DNA from: a virus
Lineage: Duplodnaviria > Heunggongvirae > Uroviricota > Caudoviricetes
Virus record (IMG/VR): IMGVR_UViG_2684622670_000001
Location: 1 to 13,110 of that record
Reading direction: 5' to 3' (one strand)
Length of the DNA: 13,110 nucleotides
Below the pieces are notes generated by a model that saw only the letters and a program-made list of their open reading frames with translations, searched no databases and had not been told where the DNA came from. The position numbers and the translations under genes were made by a program. The stretch's first letter is position 1, and each line of letters opens with the position of its first letter. Shown piece by piece: positions 4,386 through 13,110 of the stretch.

Positions 4386-5841
4386 ATTCAGATTCCATCA
4401 TGTGGTATGGGCTGGCCTTATCCGACTGGCGCATGCTTCTTATTGCATCAAGATCGAACACGCCAGCTTCGGCATAGTTCTTGTCAGCCTCAGACTGATG
4501 TTTCATGATCTCGGCTTTCTCTGCTTCTGTAAGCTCATACAGAGGCAGGAACTCAAAATCAATGTCAGGGTCAATCTCGCCAAATTCGTTTAACTGGATA
4601 ACATCCAGTACTGTTTTCAGTGGTACTCTGAACAGATTCTCCTGCATGGCGTGGATTGAGTCATAGAAGACGCGGATTTCTCCATCAGATGACGCGTTTA
4701 GCCCGTTAGGAGTGATGCCAAGGAGCTTAACCAGGGGAATGCTTGATACCGATGCCATTTGTTCCTGCGCTTGCGCCTGAAGAGCATCAACTCCGGACAG
4801 ACTTGTCACAAACTGGAAGAATTCTTCTCCATCCTTATCAATAAGGAACATTCCGCGATTGTCGCGAACCTTATTGAATAGCTCGGCACGCATAAACAGG
4901 TTTGGGTCTGCAATTCCAGACAAGGCATTCTGCATGTTCGTCTTCAGCCCGTGGACCACAAACGAATGAACCAGATCGCTAACGCTGTCACGTGTTCTCA
5001 GCCAGTTCTGCACATATGGCTCTGCCATCTGACTCAGCGACAAGCCGCCGAAGTTGTACGCCGCTTTGAGAATGTCTGGCACCTGGCGAGAAATCATTGT
5101 CAACATGCGACTGGCGTGAACCGTGCGCCCCATGACATACCATTCAGATGGATTGAAGAAGTCAGGGCTTAGAGGATTGTCAGCGTTATACACGCCCGGG
5201 TAAGTCCACATGGCTTCGATAACGCGGAAACCATTCAGGCTTCCTTTGGTAATCTTGCGCGGACTGATATAGAGCTTCTTATCCAGTTCGTCGGGAACCA
5301 GCCAGGCTGAGTTACCGCTTGGCGTCTTCACGTCGATATAAATCTGTCCGCGCCCGAAGTAACCGTCATGTTCCGCCGCCTCGCGAAACTTCTCTCGCAC
5401 TCTGAAACGCTTTAATGCGTCGTCAAGCTGGCGAATCTTATCGGCCTTGTCGTCACCATCGTCTTTACCTACATGCTTCAGCTCAATCCATTTTCGCGTC
5501 ATCTCTTCTGCTATCGTGCCAGTAATCTTGCGATACTCCGGCAACTGAGCAAGTTGAGACAGATATGGGTAGCCGGGAAATCCACCGTAGCCATATGCGG
5601 TGATGTTTGCTGAGTTAAGGTAACTGTACGGCGTGGAGTCCATCGCCAGAGCTGACTCCCCAATATGTTCAGGAATAACGCCTGGCGGGGGTACGTATCT
5701 CTCAATTCTGCGCAATGCCTCGCCTTCATTTTTAATTCGCTCCTGTTCGTTAATAATCGCAAGAACATTCGCCAGAGACATTGGCTGTTTCGCCTCTTCT
5801 TTCTGAGGCTCAGATTTTTTCTTTCTCAAAAAATTAAACAC
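4306..5841 (-). CDS. Portal protein (DUF1073-like), ~511 aa
   Basis: Large ORF immediately downstream of the large terminase gene, with an acidic C-terminal tail. The longest ORF starts with GTG at 5841 (GAGG ~8 nt upstream); the first ATG is 20 codons downstream at 5781. Confidence 0.7.
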
Positions 5842-7361
5842 TATGCGAGCCTCAAAAGGTCTTCAGATATACGTAACGGACCATTGCCATTTTTCATCTC
5901 ATCGATGGCATCCATCATCGGATCAAGCTGGTCGTCGTGCGTATTGAAATCAGGATTAATGGCTTCCATCTCAACGAGGAAGTCGTTGATGAATGGTGCG
6001 CTGCTGGGCAACTTGATGTAACCGGACTCGATATAACCCTGTACGTCCATCAGTCGTGTGTACTTATCCTTATCGCGCTGAATTGCTTTGATGGGGCATA
6101 TCGCTTTTTTTCGGATGTTCTGTATCAGGCCTGTGCCAGATGACTTGTCCTCTATCGCCATATGGCGAAGCGGCCCATTCTTCAGAGTTTTGCACTTTTC
6201 CCAGAATGCAACAGCACGGCGTTGTAATTCATCGGCCTCCCATTTACCGCGAATCATATCGATCAGATAGATGTACCCGTCAGTACCAAGCCCCCAGTGC
6301 TCGAATACTGAGAAGTCGTTGACCTCTTTTGTTTTCTGTGCGGTGTCTCCATAGACGGCACGCCATTGCATGGGAGGGAGTACCGAATATTCACCAAACC
6401 ATTCAGACTTAATAAGCCCCCCGCCTTTGGCGGTTGGTCGTTGCTGATAAAGGGCATTCCATACAAGAGAACCGCGCTGTTTGCACTTCTCTACGAACTC
6501 TCTCGGCATGCGCTCAGGAAACAGAATTTCACCGGGATTGCGCAGTCGATACACATTACCGTTGAGTTCATGAATCTCTTCCTTTTCAGCCTCCATTGGG
6601 AAGCTAACTACGCGCCAGCGTTCCCCGCCCTCTTCAGCTAGTTTTAATAACTGTCCGGCGAGATCGTTTTGATGCCAGCGTGTCAGGATGATGACAATTC
6701 CGTTTATCTTCGGGTCAACACGAGTGAAGAATGTCGTGTCATACCAGTCCATCACCGCTTCCTGGTAAGTTGGAGACGATGCGGTTTTGTAATCTTTCGC
6801 GGGGTCATCAATAACCCCAATGTTCATACCCTGCCCGGTGATGCCACCGTTAACACCAGCAGAACGATATGAGCCGCCGTGTAGTTCGCCTTTGGCATCA
6901 ACTGGTTCCCATAGCTCGGTTTTGTTGATACCTCCCGCCAAACTGCGTCCTGAAGGTATTTTCACGTCAGGGAAAACATCAGCGTACTTATCAGAGGTGA
7001 TAATGCGTTTAACGTCACGGCTCATTCGGTCTGACAGGTCAGAAGAATATGAGCACGAGATAATGTTCCATGATGGATGATGTCCTAACACATACGCTGG
7101 GAAGCGGCGAGAGCACAACTCACTCTTTCCTGAGCGCGGAGGGGCAAACACCATTAGCCTGGGCATGTTTCCGGCTTTAACTTCATCCAGAAAGTGATCT
7201 AGCTCAGCACAAAGCAGCTCGTTAAACCAACCTGTTTCGTATTGCGGATTAGTGTACAAAGTGAAATCGAGAAGGTTTTTTCTTGCTGAGCGGATAGCCA
7301 GCTCTTTGTGCAACTCATAAATCTGAGCGTTTCGATTCAAGCTGATTGGAGCGCCTGCCAT
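5841..7361 (-). CDS. Terminase large subunit, ~506 aa from the first ATG
   Basis: Walker A-like '[10 protein letters not shown]' near the N-terminus; size ~500 aa; follows the small terminase gene. First ATG at 7361 is preceded by AAGGAA; the track ORF begins with TTG at 7367. Overlaps the small terminase 3' end by ~47 nt. Confidence 0.8.
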
Positions 7362-7905
7362 TACCAAGTTCCTTCAGTTTCTCTTCAAGTAACTCTTCTG
7401 ACATATCGGCATAACGAACAGGCCCACCATCAGCGCCAGTTATTTCTGTAGATGTTTGCTCTTTAAACGCCTGAACAGAAACATGCTTACCAAGAAGTTC
7501 GAGATTTTTGACTTTATCAGGCCATTTAATTTTCTTCAGAAGTGCGGCGCTATCTGCGGATACCATCTCCACGACATCCATTCCTGATAGCGTTGTGCGC
7601 CATACCTTAGGCCAGTCTTTGATGGGTTTTAACTCACCGTTTTGCAGGAGAATGTCGAGCACATCCATCTGGTCGATTTCAACCAATCTACGAAGAACAT
7701 AGGCTGCATCTATGCCAGTCTGTTCAACGCGGGCGGATTTAAGTTCAGCAACGAATTTTTGAACATTAACATTTGCTAATAATCGAGATGCCTGCTCATT
7801 GGCGGTCTTCTCGCTGTAGCCCGCCCTGATCGCTGCCTGTGTTCCGTTCAGATCTTTCAGGTACTCACGGGCAAACAGCTCTTGTTTGTCGGTGAGCCTT
7901 GCCAT
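7315..7905 (-). CDS. Terminase small subunit (Terminase_2-like HTH N-terminus), 196 aa
   Basis: N-terminal 'LTDKQELFAREYLKDLNGTQAAIRAGYSEKTANEQASRLL' is the characteristic small-terminase HTH motif. ATG at 7905 with GGAG ~9 nt upstream; sits directly upstream of the large terminase gene. Confidence 0.75.
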   Translation of the reverse strand: MARLTDKQELFAREYLKDLNGTQAAIRAGYSEKTANEQASRLLANVNVQKFVAELKSARVEQTGIDAAYVLRRLVEIDQMDVLDILLQNGELKPIKDWPKVWRTTLSGMDVVEMVSADSAALLKKIKWPDKVKNLELLGKHVSVQAFKEQTSTEITGADGGPVRYADMSEELLEEKLKELGNGRRSNQLESKRSDL

Positions 7906-8036
7906 TATTTGTGCTCCGTTTATCCGTTAAAAGGGATATCAGTTAAGTTATCCCGTGTAGGGTATAAGCCATTATCAAGCCCACCAGTAGATGGGCTTTG
8001 TAATGGAGAGCCGTTGTGAAAGTGGCTCTCAGACTG

Positions 8037-8240
8037 TCATTTTTTCCCTTTCTGTTTACCTGCCCACTGTTTTGCAATGTACAGGCAGTCATCGAAAATT
8101 CGGCCTTTTCTGCTGGCTTGTGAACAACGGCGGTAATGTTCCACCGCCATGTCAGCGCCAGTCATAGCCGCGTTTTGGTCGTATCCAAGCTTTATTAACT
8201 CGGTTGTTACATTTTTATGTATGAAATCAATCGGAGTCAT
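8037..8240 (-). CDS. Hypothetical small protein, 67 aa (accessory cassette, second gene)
   Basis: ORF with ATG at 8240 overlapping the upstream gene stop (ATGA), suggesting translational coupling. No family recognised. Confidence 0.5.
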   Translation of the reverse strand: MTPIDFIHKNVTTELIKLGYDQNAAMTGADMAVEHYRRCSQASRKGRIFDDCLYIAKQWAGKQKGKK

Positions 8241-8833
8241 GCTGGTTTACCATCAGGGAAATCCCCCATGTCACATAGCTTGAACTGAATCAGATCCTTC
8301 ACAAGCTGCTCAGCCTTTTTAATGGCCCTCTTCTCTTTCTTCCGACGAGTCATGAGAGCGCTACCTGCTTGACCGTGCATTTCAAATGAGAACTTCTCAG
8401 CAGCCGCGACACGGTTTTGCATTTCGCTGATTGCCATATCGGTCAGGCCAGAGAAATCGAGGAGGTTAATGTCCTTCCCACCCTCAAGCTCAGTCATGTG
8501 GTCATACACCTGCGCCTGAAGCTCATAGCTGTAGCTCATTGCCATGAGGCAAGCTTCACGCTTGGGAAAATTGCAAATATCCCTCTCCACAACACCACCT
8601 GTTCCGTTGATATAGGTATCAGTTGCAAAAAATTTTGCAGCTGCATCCCCGAGAACCTTGGGTACTTTCTTCATGAAACTGCGGTGTTCGAGTTTGCGAT
8701 ATTTCTTACAGGGGAACGCAAGCCCCTCCGCCTCCGCTTTGGATTTCCGATCAGCATTAATGTAATCCACCATCTCAAGACTGCTCATGGTCGGGTATTC
8801 GCCAGAAGGAAGAACGGTTAATGATTTGTTCAT
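8237..8833 (-). CDS. Putative Rha-family-like phage regulatory protein, 198 aa (accessory cassette, first gene)
   Basis: ORF with ATG at 8833 and AAGGAA ~8 nt upstream. N-terminal region ('TMSSLEMVDYIN ... KLEHRSFMKKVPKVL ... REACLMAMSYSYELQAQVYDHM') loosely fits the Phage_pRha pattern as I recall it. C-terminal ~90 aa unassigned. Confidence 0.45.
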   Translation of the reverse strand: MNKSLTVLPSGEYPTMSSLEMVDYINADRKSKAEAEGLAFPCKKYRKLEHRSFMKKVPKVLGDAAAKFFATDTYINGTGGVVERDICNFPKREACLMAMSYSYELQAQVYDHMTELEGGKDINLLDFSGLTDMAISEMQNRVAAAEKFSFEMHGQAGSALMTRRKKEKRAIKKAEQLVKDLIQFKLCDMGDFPDGKPA

Positions 8834-8978
8834 GTCGGTATTTCCTTTAGAAAGTTGAGCCTGTTCGCACAGAAAAGCCGTCCCCGAGAGGTCCTCACCT
8901 ATACGGCAGTTCTCAGGCTCAGCTTTCTGAAAGACTCGGGATTGTTACGCGCTGCGATACGCTGTGAAATTCAGATGT

Positions 8979-9003
8979 AAAAAAAGCCCCGCATCGCGAG
9001 GCT
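8979..9003 (-). terminator. Intrinsic terminator-like hairpin plus U7 downstream of Rz
   Basis: Minus strand reads AGCCUCGC-GAU-GCGGGGCU followed by UUUUUUU: an 8-bp stem (one G-U pair) with a run of seven U. Confidence 0.5.
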
Positions 9004-9034
9004 CATTAAATTGACTTTGTGATTTGCAAAAAAA

Positions 9035-9472
9035 TTATTTCAGGCATTGCGTCCTGATATATTCCTGCAGGTAGTTAACCTGCGCGGTTATCCTGTCGAT
9101 TCCACTTCGGAGACGGTAATAATTGAGTTCAGCATCTGCTGTAAGTCTTGGGCTTTCTCCATCGCCCATGCTGCTGGCTCCGGTCGTTGACTTTGCACAG
9201 GTGGCGGCGACTTGCAGGCGCTTACGACCAGCAGAAACATCAGCACGGAGACTTTCGATAGTCGCGTTAGCATCAGCAAGCTCCTTTGTGTATCTGGCAT
9301 CGAGTTCTGCTACGTCACGTTGACGCTTCTGCATGTCAGCGATGATGGATGTGGCTTTATCGCGCTGTTCTTTGTAGGCGATTGCATTATCACGGTAATG
9401 ATTAACAGCCCATGACAGGCAAACGATGATGCAGATAACCAGAGCGGAGATAATCGCGGTTACTCTGCTCAT
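9035..9472 (-). CDS. Rz: Rz i-spanin (inner-membrane spanin subunit), 145 aa
   Basis: First ~31 aa ('[31 protein letters not shown]') match lambda Rz as recalled; the rest is a divergent Rz-like coiled-coil region. ATGA overlap with the R stop; Rz1 is embedded in the +1 frame. Confidence 0.85.
9088..9273 (-). CDS. Rz1: Rz1 o-spanin (outer-membrane lipoprotein), ~61 aa from Met10 of the embedded ORF
   Basis: Embedded entirely within Rz in another frame. Signal peptide with lipobox ('[20 protein letters not shown]') followed by a proline-rich mature region ('[16 protein letters not shown]'). The start choice (Met10 versus Met1 at 9300) is inferred. Confidence 0.7.
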
Positions 9473-9945
9473 ACCTCAATCTCTCTGACCGTTCCGCCTG
9501 CTTCTTTGAATTTTGCAATCAGGCTGTCAGCCTTATGCTCGAACTGACCATAACCAGCGCCCGGCAGTGAAGCCCAGATATTGCTGCAACGGTCAATTGC
9601 CTGACGAATATCACCGCGATCAATCATCGGTAAAGCGCCACGTTCTTTAATCTGTTGCAATGCCACAGCGTCCTGGCTTTTCGGAGAGAAGTCTTTCAGG
9701 CCAAGCTGCTTACGGTAGGCATCCCACCAACGGGAAAGAAGCTGGTAACGTCCGGCGGCTGTTGATTTGAGTTTGGGGTTTAGCGTGACAAGTTTGCGAG
9801 GGTGATCGGAGTAATCAGTGAATAGCTCTCCGCCAACAATGACGTCATAACCATGATTTCTGGTTTTCTGTCGTCCGTTATCAGTTCCCTCTGACCACGC
9901 CAGCATATCGAGGAACGCCTTACGTTGATTATTGATTTCCACCAT
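9469..9945 (-). CDS. R: Endolysin R (lambda-type lytic transglycosylase), 158 aa
   Basis: Protein '[39 protein letters not shown]...' matches lambda R as recalled. 17-nt overlap with S and ATGA overlap with Rz, as in lambda. Confidence 0.95.
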
Positions 9946-10252
9946 CTTCTACTCCGGCTTTTTTAGCAGCGAAGCGTTTGATAAGCGAACCAATCGAGTC
10001 AGTACCGATGTAGCCGATGAACACGCTCGTTATATAAGCGAGATTGCTACTTAGTCCGGCGAAGTCGAGAAGGTCACGAATGAACCAGGCGATAATGGCG
10101 CACATCGTTGCGTCGATTACTGTTTTTGTAAACGCACCGCCATTATATCTGCCGCGAAGGTACGCCATTGCAAACGCAAGGATTGCCCCGATGCCTTGTT
10201 CCTTTGCCGCGAGAATGGCGGCTAACAGGTCATGTTTTTCTGGCATCTTCAT
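9929..10252 (-). CDS. S: Holin S (class I; S107 antiholin / S105 holin dual-start), 107 aa
   Basis: Protein '[39 protein letters not shown]...' matches lambda S as recalled, including the Met1-Lys2-Met3 dual-start motif. Confidence 0.95.
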
Positions 10253-10578
10253 GTCTTACCCCCGATAAGGGGATTTGCTCTATTTAATTAGGAATAAGGT
10301 CGGTTACTGATAGAACAAATCCAGGCTACTGTGTTTAGTAATCAGATTTGTTCGTGACCGATATGCACGGGCAAAACGGCAGGAGGTTGTTAGCGCAACC
10401 TCTTGCCACCCGCTTTCACGAAGTCAGCCATTGCGCTGGTTTTCTTTTATGCAAAGCACACCGCACCGTAGCCACAGCGGATAAGGTGATTGTTTTGTAT
10501 GCTTTGTGTTTGGTTGATTATGTATTTCAGAAATGTTGTGCTAATGTTGTCATTCATATAAAGAAGGATTAAACACAA

Positions 10579-10758
10579 ATGAATGACTTTGACACAAGAA
10601 GGCTCCACGCAATCCATATGTTACTTCAAGAGATCTCTGATAAAACCTTGCAAATAGCCATGTCAACGCACTCTGATGAAAACAAGAAAAGTCTTATCAC
10701 ACCACTAATGAAAAGACATGCGGATCTAGTCGCTGAATTTCAGGAACTATTGAAATAA
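10579..10758 (+). CDS. Candidate small ORF (59 aa) on the opposite strand within the Q-S intergenic region
   Basis: ATG at 10579 preceded by AAGAAGGA (spacing ~10); 59 codons ending in TAA; lies in an AT-rich stretch that does not overlap any minus-strand gene. Just below the 60-aa cutoff of the supplied ORF track. No family recognised. Confidence 0.35.
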   Translation: MNDFDTRRLHAIHMLLQEISDKTLQIAMSTHSDENKKSLITPLMKRHADLVAEFQELLK

Positions 10759-10761
10759 TTA

Positions 10762-10789
10762 AATACCCACACAGAGATACGGGGGTATT
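10762..10789 (-). terminator. Hairpin (AAUACCC ... GGGUAUU) with U-rich 3' side on the minus strand; candidate tR'-like terminator of the late leader transcript
   Basis: 7-bp perfect inverted repeat with a 14-nt loop, followed on the minus strand by UAAUUAUUUC. It lies at the 3' end of the lambda-like 6S-leader segment and immediately after the stop of the plus-strand 59-aa ORF. Confidence 0.35.
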
Positions 10790-10949
10790 AGTTACCACAT
10801 TAGCAACTTTATTGCGTCAATATTTGCAAACCTCTCAGCCCGCGATGGTTGGAGTTCCAGACGATACGTCGAAGTGACCAACTAGGCGGAATCGGTAGTA
10901 AAGCGCCGCCTTTTTTCATCTCACTACCACAACGAGCGAATTAACCCAT

Positions 10950-11114
10950 CTATCCCATACTGGAGAATTCACCATGATATTTTATCCTGGCATTTTCCAT
11001 TGCCTTTCTAGCCTCCTCGATATCGTCAAAACACCCTACATGAATCCTCCATGTAAGAATTCCAGTATCTGGATTGTAATTAAAAAGTCTCAATGCATCT
11101 TCACGTTTTAACAT
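10950..11114 (-). pseudogene. Degraded HNH-AP2 homing endonuclease remnant (54-codon ORF)
   Basis: Translation 'MLKREDALRLFNYNPDTGILTWRIHVGCFDDIEEARKAMENARIKYHGEFSSMG' joins an HNH_3-type N-terminal motif ('LFNYNPDTGILTW') directly to an AP2-type C-terminal tail ('GCFDDIEEARKAMENARIKYHGEF'), with no catalytic core between them. Sits in an AT-rich insertion with a weak RBS. Confidence 0.45.
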
Positions 11115-11300
11115 AGGCGAACCACATAGATATTAGAGCCTGCTGACATAGAAATATCACCACGAGAGAAGTCGCCAAAAGCGATATTTCTCAGGCTCTA
11201 TTCCTATGTGCTCTCGAGTTTATGATGCGCATGTCAGTGCGCTTAGAACTTAAAGATGAGGTGGGTAAAAGCTGAAAGAATGTGAACGGATATAAATCTG

Positions 11301-11343
11301 CCATTCTTGGGTCAAATTTACCCAACTTTATTCAAATAGTCAA
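11301..11343 (-). promoter_or_regulatory. Late promoter pR' with qut/Q-binding region and promoter-proximal pause element
   Basis: Minus strand reads TTGACT (11343..11338), a 17-nt spacer, TAAATT (11320..11315), then TGACCCAAGAATGG. This closely matches the lambda pR' sequence as recalled (TTGACTTATTGAATAAAATTGGGTAAATTTGACTCAACGATGG). Located ~45 nt downstream of the Q stop. Confidence 0.75.
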
Positions 11344-11385
11344 TATTATGCCGTTAATATGTTGCCATCCGTGGCAATCATGCTG

Positions 11386-12009
11386 CTAACGTGTGACCGC
11401 GTTCAAAATGTTGTCTGCGATTGACTCTTCCTTGTGGCATTGCACCACCAGAGCGTCATACAGCGGCTTAACAGTGCGTGACCAGGTGGGTTGGGTAAGG
11501 TTTGGGATTAGCATCGTCACAGCGCGATATGCGGCGCTTGCTGGCATTCTTGAATAGCCGACACCTTTGCATCTTCCGCACTCTTTCTCAACAACTCTCC
11601 CCAATTGCTCTGTTTTTGATATATCAACCGCACGGCCTGTACCGTGGCAATCTCTGCATCTTGCGCCCGGCGTCGCGGCACTACGGCAATAATCCGCATA
11701 AGCGAATGTTGCGAGCACTTGCAGTACCTTTGCCTTAGTATTTCCTTCAAGCTTTGCCACACCACGGTATTTCCCCGATACCTTGTGTGCAAATTGCATC
11801 AGATAGTTGATAGCCTTTTGTTTGTCGTTCTGGTTGAGTTCATGCTTACCACAGAATGCAGCCATTCCGAATCCGGCTTGTGATTGCGCCATCCCCATAG
11901 CAGCCATCACATCAGTACCGGAAAGAGAGTCAGAAGCCGTAGCCCGTGGTGAGTCGCTCATCATCGGGCTTTTTGGCGAATGAAATTTAGCTACGCTTTC
12001 GAGTCTCAT
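11386..12009 (-). CDS. Q: Late gene antiterminator Q (lambda-type), 207 aa
   Basis: Protein 'MRLESVAKFHSPKSPMMSDSPRATASDSLSG ... CRDCHGTGRAVD ... CGRCKGVGYSR ... NILNAVTR' matches lambda Q as recalled, including the zinc-binding Cys motif. ATGA overlap with ninH. Confidence 0.95.
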   Translation of the reverse strand: MRLESVAKFHSPKSPMMSDSPRATASDSLSGTDVMAAMGMAQSQAGFGMAAFCGKHELNQNDKQKAINYLMQFAHKVSGKYRGVAKLEGNTKAKVLQVLATFAYADYCRSAATPGARCRDCHGTGRAVDISKTEQLGRVVEKECGRCKGVGYSRMPASAAYRAVTMLIPNLTQPTWSRTVKPLYDALVVQCHKEESIADNILNAVTR

Positions 12010-12194
12010 CGTCTTCCCCTCTTGCCCTGTTTGACCATCAGGACGCCGTTAACTATTACATGACGCTCGCCTTTGCTGTCTCTGTTGTACTTGAGCACTG
12101 TTCCTCTTGCGCAGGAAAGCATCCTCGCCACTTCGGTCTGATTGCCTCGTGTCTGGATAAGAAGCTCTGGTATCGTTTGAATTGTGGCGTTCAT
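12006..12194 (-). CDS. ninH: NinH-like protein, 62 aa
   Basis: 'TIPELLIQTRGNQTEVARMLSCARGTVLKYNRDSKGERHVIVNGVLMV' resembles lambda NinH ('TIPDMLVEAYGNQTEVARRLKCSRGTVRKY...') as recalled. Positioned immediately upstream of Q. Confidence 0.8.
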   Translation of the reverse strand: MNATIQTIPELLIQTRGNQTEVARMLSCARGTVLKYNRDSKGERHVIVNGVLMVKQGKRGRR

Positions 12195-12553
12195 ACGTTC
12201 TCCAGTTCGGTGATTTTTATTCCAAGCCGTCCGCCTGGTACTTTCACACCACGAATTACGCGAATGTCATCGAATTGCTCGTCGTCTTCCGCAAATCCGG
12301 CGTGGATAAGGGAGTCGAGTAAACCTTTCAGGATGTTATCGAGGTCGCGGCGGCGGGAGTCTGGAACGTCTGCGATGACTTTGATGCGGAGTCGTGATTT
12401 GGTGAAAATGTCTAACTTGAGTTGGCGGATGATTTGCTGAACGTCTTTTCGGTATTTCTGGCCTTTATCGCTGATGTAGTATTGTCTTCCCCGTCTTCGC
12501 CAGTAGGTATTCACCGACGGCGGGTATGGAAGCACAAACTGATATTCGTTCAT
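12191..12553 (-). CDS. rusA: RusA-family Holliday junction resolvase, 120 aa
   Basis: Conserved RusA motifs 'DVPDSRRRDLDN' and 'GGRLGIKITE'; 120 aa; nin-region location; ATGA overlaps on both sides. Confidence 0.85.
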   Translation of the reverse strand: MNEYQFVLPYPPSVNTYWRRRGRQYYISDKGQKYRKDVQQIIRQLKLDIFTKSRLRIKVIADVPDSRRRDLDNILKGLLDSLIHAGFAEDDEQFDDIRVIRGVKVPGGRLGIKITELENV

Positions 12554-12840
12554 GACTTAATCTTCCCCTCCTTCAGTAGTATCGCCTGCGTCCTGATCAC
12601 GCCTTCGAGGTGGTAAAGTCTGGCGTCTTTGTTGTCGATATTATGGGTACGTCGGTCGATTTCATCGTGACACGCGCTACAAGCCCATGCGCCGATCAGG
12701 TCGTCAGGCTTCATTCCCGTTCCGCAAATTCCAGCCATCCGGTAATGTGCCAGAACTGTAGTTTCAGGATTGCCATTGCATACGCCGTAAATACGTACCT
12801 GGCATTCTCTGCCGCGCGCTTCTTTGCGTAGGTTAGCCAT
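12550..12840 (-). CDS. ybcO: YbcO-like putative nuclease (DUF1364), Cys-rich, 96 aa
   Basis: 'RGRECQVRIYGVCNGNPETTVLAH ... CSACHDEIDRRTH' matches the YbcO/DUF1364 family as recalled; located directly upstream of rusA as in DLP12-type nin regions. Confidence 0.65.
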   Translation of the reverse strand: MANLRKEARGRECQVRIYGVCNGNPETTVLAHYRMAGICGTGMKPDDLIGAWACSACHDEIDRRTHNIDNKDARLYHLEGVIRTQAILLKEGKIKS

Positions 12841-13059
12841 TTAATACTCCAGTTCAGGGGCATTTTTTAGGTCATGTTTTTTGCAGAATTGCTGCCACTC
12901 TCTTTCCAGCCGCTTACCTGTAAATTTCACTCTGCATTTTGAGTAAGTGCTAATGGCATTAAATGGTGCTGAGCCTTCAGGAAATCGAGAGCGGAATACT
13001 TCTGCCACAGGTACTAAAACCAAATACAAATAATCAGAGCTACTAAACGAATCACTCAT
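12841..13059 (-). CDS. Hypothetical nin-region protein, 72 aa
   Basis: ORF with ATG at 13059 and GAGGAA ~7 nt upstream; ends 1 nt before the ybcO-like start. No family recognised. Confidence 0.5.
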   Translation of the reverse strand: MSDSFSSSDYLYLVLVPVAEVFRSRFPEGSAPFNAISTYSKCRVKFTGKRLEREWQQFCKKHDLKNAPELEY

Positions 13060-13110
13060 CGTCTTCTTCCTCGTGCATCGAGCTATTCGGATCGCTCATC
13101 AGTTCTGCGC
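13052..13110 (-). CDS. 3' end of an upstream nin-region ORF (partial; 5' end outside the window)
   Basis: Open frame running from the window edge to TGA at 13052..13054 (C-terminus '...ELMSDPNSSMHEEEDDE'), overlapping the next start by 8 nt. Identity unknown. Confidence 0.3.
   Translation of the reverse strand, partial: AELMSDPNSSMHEEEDDE

Follow-up and report, generated by a model that had tools for sequence, protein, structure and literature searches.

A 59-residue protein family (phrog_3719), probably moron-like, encoded opposite the late operon between antiterminator and holin in lambdoid prophages of Enterobacterales

Late promoters of the pR' type are always active, and in lysogeny their transcripts are terminated immediately downstream (PMC7547250). 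The closest described counterparts of the terminator considered here are lambda tR' with its 6S RNA, and the StxS sRNA of Stx phages. The interval between Q/tR' and the holin gene is a variable slot in these phages, and in Stx and HK-type phages it holds cargo such as stx and tRNA genes, which run in the same direction as the late operon and are expressed via Q read-through. Lambdoid phages are also known for morons (a term whose definition by Juhala and Hendrix is quoted in PMC2629481), with lambda bor and lom and the “ant moron” of P22 as examples. The small gene described here occupies the same slot as the stx and tRNA cargo, but is convergent with the late operon. It resembles the known morons in being present or absent among close relatives at the same site, in having a composition distinct from its flanks, in forming a small unit between terminator-like hairpins, and in having no role in the surrounding operon. 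It differs from them in a 3' hairpin that is mainly oriented for the opposite strand; lysogen phenotypes are known for bor, lom, and sieA. The explanation that we favor on balance, and regard as rather probable, is that of a moron-like gene of the phrog_3719 family in lambdoid prophages of Enterobacterales, carried in a cassette that abuts the late terminator. It would be an ordinary moron-type add-on, with its convergent, terminator-sharing geometry as the one distinctive feature.

The window, meaning the whole stretch of 13,110 nucleotides that was analyzed, corresponds to Escherichia albertii contig BBVP01000037.1 (positions 5579..13110 constitute locus L012), and the late region of a lambdoid prophage lies on its minus strand (Table 1). 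Three stretches are homologous to lambda, namely window 11386..11307 (lambda 44509..44588), 10950..10823 (44590..44716), and 10426..10253 (45011..45185), with 96-97% identity by blastn over 10253..10426 and 10823..10950. A 396-bp substitution displaces lambda tR' and approximately 230 bp beyond it, and the ORF sits within this segment, of which the part unique to ORF carriers spans about 10543..10822. The original prediction that the ORF lies in an island with no lambda counterpart agrees with this alignment, as the whole segment is nonhomologous to the lambda sequence that it replaces. The window also carries a 356-bp insertion relative to lambda at 10951..11306, approximately 10 nt past the pR' start site, and as a result its pR' leader measures about 545 nt, up from about 190 nt. 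This insertion, with a 54-aa ORF (10950..11114, minus strand), is the deletion remnant of an HNH homing-endonuclease gene, which is found at full length (163 aa) in the same place in E. coli EC187792 (L039 1328..1819) and in other strains, and a terminator-like site is located inside the remnant (11058..11034). Following pR', at 11296..11314 on the minus strand, the window reads AAGAAT in place of AACGAT, the sigma-dependent pause element of lambda, so the -10-like Q-loading pause signal seemingly survives the insertion.

Table 1. Coordinates of the late-region features and of the gene cassette in the window
Feature	Position	Strand	Evidence or remark
Late antiterminator Q (lambda type, 207 aa)	11386..12009	-	PF03589
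Late promoter pR', TTGACT-17-TAAATT	11315..11343	-	Promoter scan; homology to lambda 44509..44588
Homologue of the first ~127 nt of lambda 6S/pR' leader RNA	10823..10950	-	96% identity to lambda 44590..44716
Hairpin with T-rich tail, probable late-strand intrinsic terminator standing in for lambda tR'	10753..10789	-	Terminator scan; L002, L036
59-aa gene (phrog_3719)	10579..10758	+	ORF call, alleles, dN/dS, AF2; predicted antiparallel two-helix hairpin
Shine-Dalgarno sequence AAGGA	10564..10568	+	Read from sequence; 10 nt before ATG
Candidate extended -10 element TGcTAATGT (weak, inferred)	10539..10547	+	Aligned elements in nearest lineages
Segment of 396 bp replacing lambda 44717..45010 (tR' and downstream)	10427..10822	.	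blastn against lambda and E. coli G3/10
Terminator-like hairpin 5' of the ORF, at the left boundary of the non-lambda segment	10420..10443	+	Terminator scan
Holin S (lambda S107 type)	9929..10252	-	PF05106
Endolysin	9469..9945	-	
Rz	9035..9472	-	Terminase and portal genes come next

The ORF comprises 59 codons on the plus strand, from an ATG at 10579 to a TAA at 10756-10758, and both these coordinates and the translation are identical to those originally predicted. The Shine-Dalgarno sequence proposed along with the ATG is also present, and a purine-rich motif of this kind is located 6-10 nt 5' of the start in all eight lineages inspected, while in the Serratia alleles GTG replaces ATG at an unchanged start position. 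Base composition bears out the description of the region as an AT-rich island, with the GC fraction dipping to 0.30-0.40 over positions 10500-10800 versus 0.45-0.54 in the flanks. Dinucleotide shuffling of the 396-bp segment yields ATG-initiated ORFs of at least 59 aa in 376 of 2000 cases (19%), and shuffling of the 1133-bp Q-S spacer does so in 1340 of 2000 (67%). Since an ORF of this length is so common in shuffled sequence, its significance rests only on comparative evidence.

This comparative evidence makes it almost certain that the ORF is a genuine protein-coding gene. An initial search returned the same protein from E. albertii and one with 85% identity from E. coli, and HMMER (1.84 billion representatives) together with two profile searches recovered only proteins of 59-61 aa with 40-85% identity, the sole length exception being one truncated call of 46 aa. 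In total we distinguish approximately 20 alleles across this range of length and identity, all of which keep the start, the frame, and the length, and further alleles obtained from IMG/VR are likewise all intact. Frameshifts or stops in relatives, named as a possible refutation when the ORF was first noticed, are not seen among them. The substitution patterns, evaluated with the Nei-Gojobori method, point to purifying selection, with dN/dS values of 0.04-0.33 for the deeper allele pairs: 0.20 for the window versus Salmonella (19 synonymous and 24 nonsynonymous differences), 0.04 for L036 (Pseudocitrobacter) versus L037 (26 synonymous versus 13 nonsynonymous), 0.11 for L033 versus L040, and 0.08 for L027 versus L036. 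The closest pair, the window and the E. coli allele, gives 0.63 on only 14 changes and is uninformative, and in the most distant pairs synonymous sites are at or near saturation. Mean pairwise differences at codon positions 1, 2, and 3 are 0.33, 0.26, and 0.57, and close alleles show indels of 1 nt and 5 nt in the flanks of the ORF and none inside it.

The family itself had already been cataloged. The protein matches the phrog_3719 profile from end to end (E=1.9e-30, residues 1-59 on positions 1-59 of 59; PHROGs v4, unknown function), and GenBank and UniProt hold “hypothetical protein” entries of the same family (QTA20550.1, QTA23754.1, WP_108474035.1, WP_149559870.1, and A0A3Y2DUV2), with identical or near-identical sequences and without functional information. 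The gene is thus neither unannotated nor of unknown family, as had been proposed from the sequence, and the expectation that automated annotation would likely miss it did not hold either, as gene callers report it on the same contig (L012). Literature searches by accession, PHROG identifier, peptide, and topic returned nothing on the 59-aa gene.

Family members are hosted by E. albertii, E. coli, Salmonella enterica, Pseudocitrobacter, and Serratia (including Serratia marcescens). In S. enterica, one allele is present on at least 1,000 contigs and a second on 967, and an S. enterica allele is indexed in 2,032 blocks of the assembly collection. When 5,426 complete E. coli genomes were queried with the segment by megablast and blastn, only the flanks matched and no genome carried the ORF segment, and two scans of species-representative genomes gave no match. 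Searches by tblastn of 50,697 isolated-phage records with four family members, and of 72,556 plasmids with the window protein, gave no match either. Members of the family reside in prophages, often in Salmonella and rarely in E. coli. Given the low overall frequency of the gene, its absence from isolated-phage records may be due to chance; 174 of these records share the flanks of the gene.

The gene faces the late operon in every locus read: it is encoded on the other strand, with the late antiterminator on one side and the holin on the other, and its start is 232-473 nt from the holin start. The genes around it are far from constant: the neighboring Q proteins are of five types (PF03589 with 207 aa, PF03589 with 277 aa, PF06530, a 200-aa DUF1133-like protein, and a 205-aa protein without a Pfam match), the holins belong to Phage_holin_3_1, 3_3, 2_1, and 2_3, and the endolysins and packaging modules vary as well. 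The slot lacks the gene in lambda, in E. coli G3/10 (58 nt, terminator only), and in E. coli EC187792, where, as in phages Kapi1 and mEp506, it is occupied by tRNA-Thr and tRNA-Asn.

Additional arrangements are seen in individual lineages. Serratia marcescens prophages (L022-L026 5762..7111, plus strand) contain a second cargo gene, encoding a 449-aa FRG-domain protein (PF08867), after the family gene and before Q. In P0005, the most divergent lineage (L031/L032 4738..4992, plus strand), an 84-aa ORF without a Pfam match is located upstream on the same strand and ends 8 nt before the family gene, with which it may form a two-gene unit. In E. albertii CP043266, two different prophages each carry the identical 59-aa gene, and in one of its loci (L009 2875..4103) an IS element (transposase, HTH_Tnp_1 and rve) is found between the holin and the family gene.

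The hairpin that the original prediction placed just past the ORF is present, with its stem-loop at 10762..10789, and the scan identifies it as terminator-like on the minus strand. Its T-rich tail overlaps the last codons and the stop codon of the ORF, and the sequence following the hairpin reads TAGTTACC on the plus strand and TAATTATTTC on the minus strand. A hairpin is found 4-20 nt past the stop codon in all ten lineages compared, and in seven of these it is more stable as late-strand RNA (in Salmonella, -21.7 versus -13.0 kcal/mol). The late-strand tail contains 5-7 T in its first 8 nt in nine of the ten lineages versus 1-5 T for the plus-strand tail, and only L027, L033, and partly L031 have a good T-tract on the gene's own strand, which gives them a bidirectional look. 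This combination of late-strand stability and T-tails suggests that the hairpin is primarily a terminator of the late operon. In relatives without the HNH-remnant insertion (L002 and L036) it is located approximately 190 nt from the pR' start (approximately 193 nt in the E. coli allele), compared with 194 nt for the lambda 6S RNA, and this spacing argues that it stands in for lambda tR'. We therefore consider it quite likely that the hairpin acts as a late-strand terminator and tR' surrogate; the structure predicted to follow the ORF is real and, more than simply the ORF's own terminator, would have a chiefly late-strand role in the place of tR'.

The likeness to lambda tR'/6S RNA and to the StxS sRNA thus lies in the ~190-nt spacing in L002 and L036, in the late-strand T-tract, and in the homologue of the 6S 5' half that precedes the hairpin. 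The lambda tR' hairpin (AATCCCGAAAC...GTTTCGGGATT, then T6) is located just past the end of the homology to the window, which stops at window 10823 (lambda 44716), and no sequence homology to it was found. The window differs from lambda further in its long leader and in a degraded hairpin. Indeed, the window copy is the weakest of the set, at about -7 kcal/mol versus about -15.5 kcal/mol in the E. coli allele (L002 5183..5213); compared with that allele, two mismatches disrupt its stem and 5 nt are deleted from its T-tract. In the E. coli allele, ACCCCCG/CGGGGGT pairs as a perfect stem, with TTTTTATTT following on the late strand. The loop CCCCGCAGAGAT is read on the plus strand in the E. coli allele (L002 5192..5213) and on the minus strand in Pseudocitrobacter (L036 5185..5216) and Salmonella, as if it had been flipped. 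In Serratia, the FRG-domain gene is situated between the ORF and Q, and the hairpin there consequently cannot be the first terminator after the late promoter.

On the plus strand, no sigma-70 promoter reached the scan threshold in the window, and a relaxed scan revealed no promoter motif common to the whole family. The extended -10 candidate TGcTAATGT is matched at the same distance from the ATG by TGtTATTTT in Pseudocitrobacter (L036) and Salmonella (L050) and by TGaTAATTT in L037, and a transcript starting from it would have a leader of about 25 nt that includes the Shine-Dalgarno sequence. Farther upstream, the hairpin at the left edge of the non-lambda segment (CCAGC...GCTGG, then TTTTCTTTT) recurs in Pseudocitrobacter L036, where its stem is longer, and in E. 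coli G3/10, which lacks the ORF; a plus-strand transcript stopped by this hairpin might be antisense to the 5' end of the holin gene. Directly upstream of the 59-aa gene, with its end 7 nt away, is a 74-aa ORF with a TTG start (10348..10572, plus strand; 69 aa if counted from the first ATG), which appears as a 72-aa gene call in L009. It was evaluated as an operon partner and rejected: the 1-nt and 5-nt indels of close alleles fall inside it, so it is probably not coding.

The original description of the product as probably helical is in line with its AlphaFold2 model (11-sequence alignment; pLDDT 97, pTM 0.78), in which a helix (residues 3-27), a loop (28-32), and a second helix (33-58) are predicted to form a confident two-helix hairpin. 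The protein has no membrane segment. Its invariant residues follow an a/d heptad spacing (I12, L16, I19, T23, and I26 in helix 1; I40, M44, H47, and L58 in helix 2) and mostly occupy a/d core positions, while the conserved polar positions include Q17, S32, D33, K36, P42, and E53. Residues L43, L50, and L57 make up a second hydrophobic stripe on helix 2, from which we infer either dimerization into a four-helix bundle or docking of a partner. Profile searches of the PDB returned designed coiled coils only and the structural matches were generic; Pfam and NCBIfam gave sub-threshold matches only, and PADLOC a likewise sub-threshold match to BrxA in one member (E 0.008), with none in the other 10 members. 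The protein resembles Rop of ColE1, a 63-aa helical hairpin whose dimer is a four-helix bundle, in size, in its helix-loop-helix arrangement, and in a loop near residue 30. Homology to Rop was rejected, with an hhalign probability of 0.4% (E 0.14) and a Foldseek match that is not significant (E 3.4).

Several other explanations for this locus can be weighed against the same data. A chance ORF in the AT-rich noncoding spacer past tR', called as a gene because of a fortuitous SD-like sequence, would fit the frequency of similar lengths among the shuffles (19% and 67%), the nearly neutral comparison of the window with the E. coli allele, and the negative plus-strand promoter scan. However, start, frame, and length are kept by some 20 alleles down to 40% identity, dN/dS is low in all but the closest pair, third codon positions are the most variable, indels are confined to the flanks, and the predicted fold is confident; a chance origin is thus exceedingly improbable and appears effectively refuted by the comparative data. 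The substitution pattern also speaks to the idea that the selected element is an RNA or DNA feature, such as the late-strand leader, an antisense RNA tuning the holin, or the terminator region, with the ORF as an incidental passenger. Near-saturated synonymous sites alongside conserved amino acids are the reverse of what constraint on an RNA sequence would leave, nucleotides outside the ORF are not conserved between distant lineages, no long minus-strand ORF runs across the region, and positions 10200-11450 have no Rfam match at E<=1. We consider this idea very unlikely even though the segment lies in the late-operon leader directly 5' of the holin, its hairpin is clearly selected on the late strand, and any plus-strand transcript would be fully complementary to the late mRNA.

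Granting a protein product, its invariable proximity to the holin start (232-473 nt) invites the view that it regulates lysis, as a cytoplasmic antiholin-like factor or as a brake on leaky holin expression, and small cytoplasmic helical lysis regulators do exist, for example, T4 RIII. The adjacent holins nevertheless fall into no fewer than three Pfam families that are unrelated to one another, among them class I-like and pinholin-like types, which argues against a specific protein-protein partner; moreover, the gene is on the opposite strand, so that it would be anticorrelated rather than coexpressed with the lysis genes, and its product has no membrane segment. Such a role appears quite unlikely. 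Use of the gene not in the lysogen but upon infection or early in lytic growth, prior to the action of Q, is unlikely as well, though phage proteins that are small, helical, and of unknown function often act in early host takeover or anti-defense, and an accessory gene of this kind could be pictured here. The gene belongs to none of the early operons and has no known early promoter upstream, a plus-strand terminator-like hairpin lies just 5' of it, and no PADLOC or other family match supports an anti-defense or host-takeover activity. As to mimicry of the FliG ARM-C domain to modulate the flagellar motor of the lysogen, the FliG_C profile (PF01706) is matched by the window protein at E=0.002 and by the best family member at 3.4e-4 over profile positions 31-73, with a local similarity to E. 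coli FliG 246-281 (LLQEV..L.IAL). The score of 18.8 bits falls short of the Pfam gathering cutoff of 23.3, only 4 of 11 members match at E<1, and the hhalign probability is 1%, which leaves a FliG mimic hardly credible.

The favored reading remains that of a moron-like gene in a cassette abutting the late terminator, and the orientation antisense to the late operon within an AT-rich segment absent from lambda and from many related phages supports the moron layout suggested at the outset. On the plus strand, the cassette would consist in order of a terminator-like hairpin, a weak promoter region, the Shine-Dalgarno sequence, the 59-codon ORF, and a GC-rich hairpin. It is postulated that in the lysogen the transcript from the always-active pR' stops at this last hairpin; since promoters of this type are always on and are terminated in lysogens, the hairpin would shield the ORF, which would be spared convergent transcription and could be expressed at a low level from its own weak promoter. 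After induction, Q-modified polymerase would pass the hairpin and run head-on and antisense, at a high rate, over the ORF into the holin gene, and the ORF would be silenced by collision and antisense RNA. The reverse orientation would at the same time keep moron transcription out of the holin gene. With a shield in the lysogen and silencing driven by Q, expression would be specific to lysogeny, and we regard lysogeny-specific expression with a Q-driven shut-off as about evenly poised between right and wrong. The product would be cytoplasmic, an antiparallel coiled-coil hairpin of helices 3-27 and 33-58 that probably pairs into a four-helix bundle. Because Q, holin, and endolysin families are exchanged around a conserved protein, its partner is probably not tied to any one phage module, and the likelier target is some general aspect of infection or, most likely, a host component. 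That the protein is a dimeric binder of a host target is a tentative and somewhat doubtful proposal.

These results add a well-supported small protein family to the known cargo of the Q-to-holin hot spot in lambdoid prophages. The family is common in Salmonella, where a single allele alone accounts for at least 1,000 contigs, and its arrangement, convergent with the late operon and next to the terminator on which Q would act, is unusual and strictly conserved. For what is at present a hypothetical protein, the practical importance is modest. If the gene is expressed only in the lysogen and silenced by Q, it would offer a simple model for a moron switch operated by head-on transcription, and the protein could reveal a new lysogenic-conversion or prophage-maintenance function.
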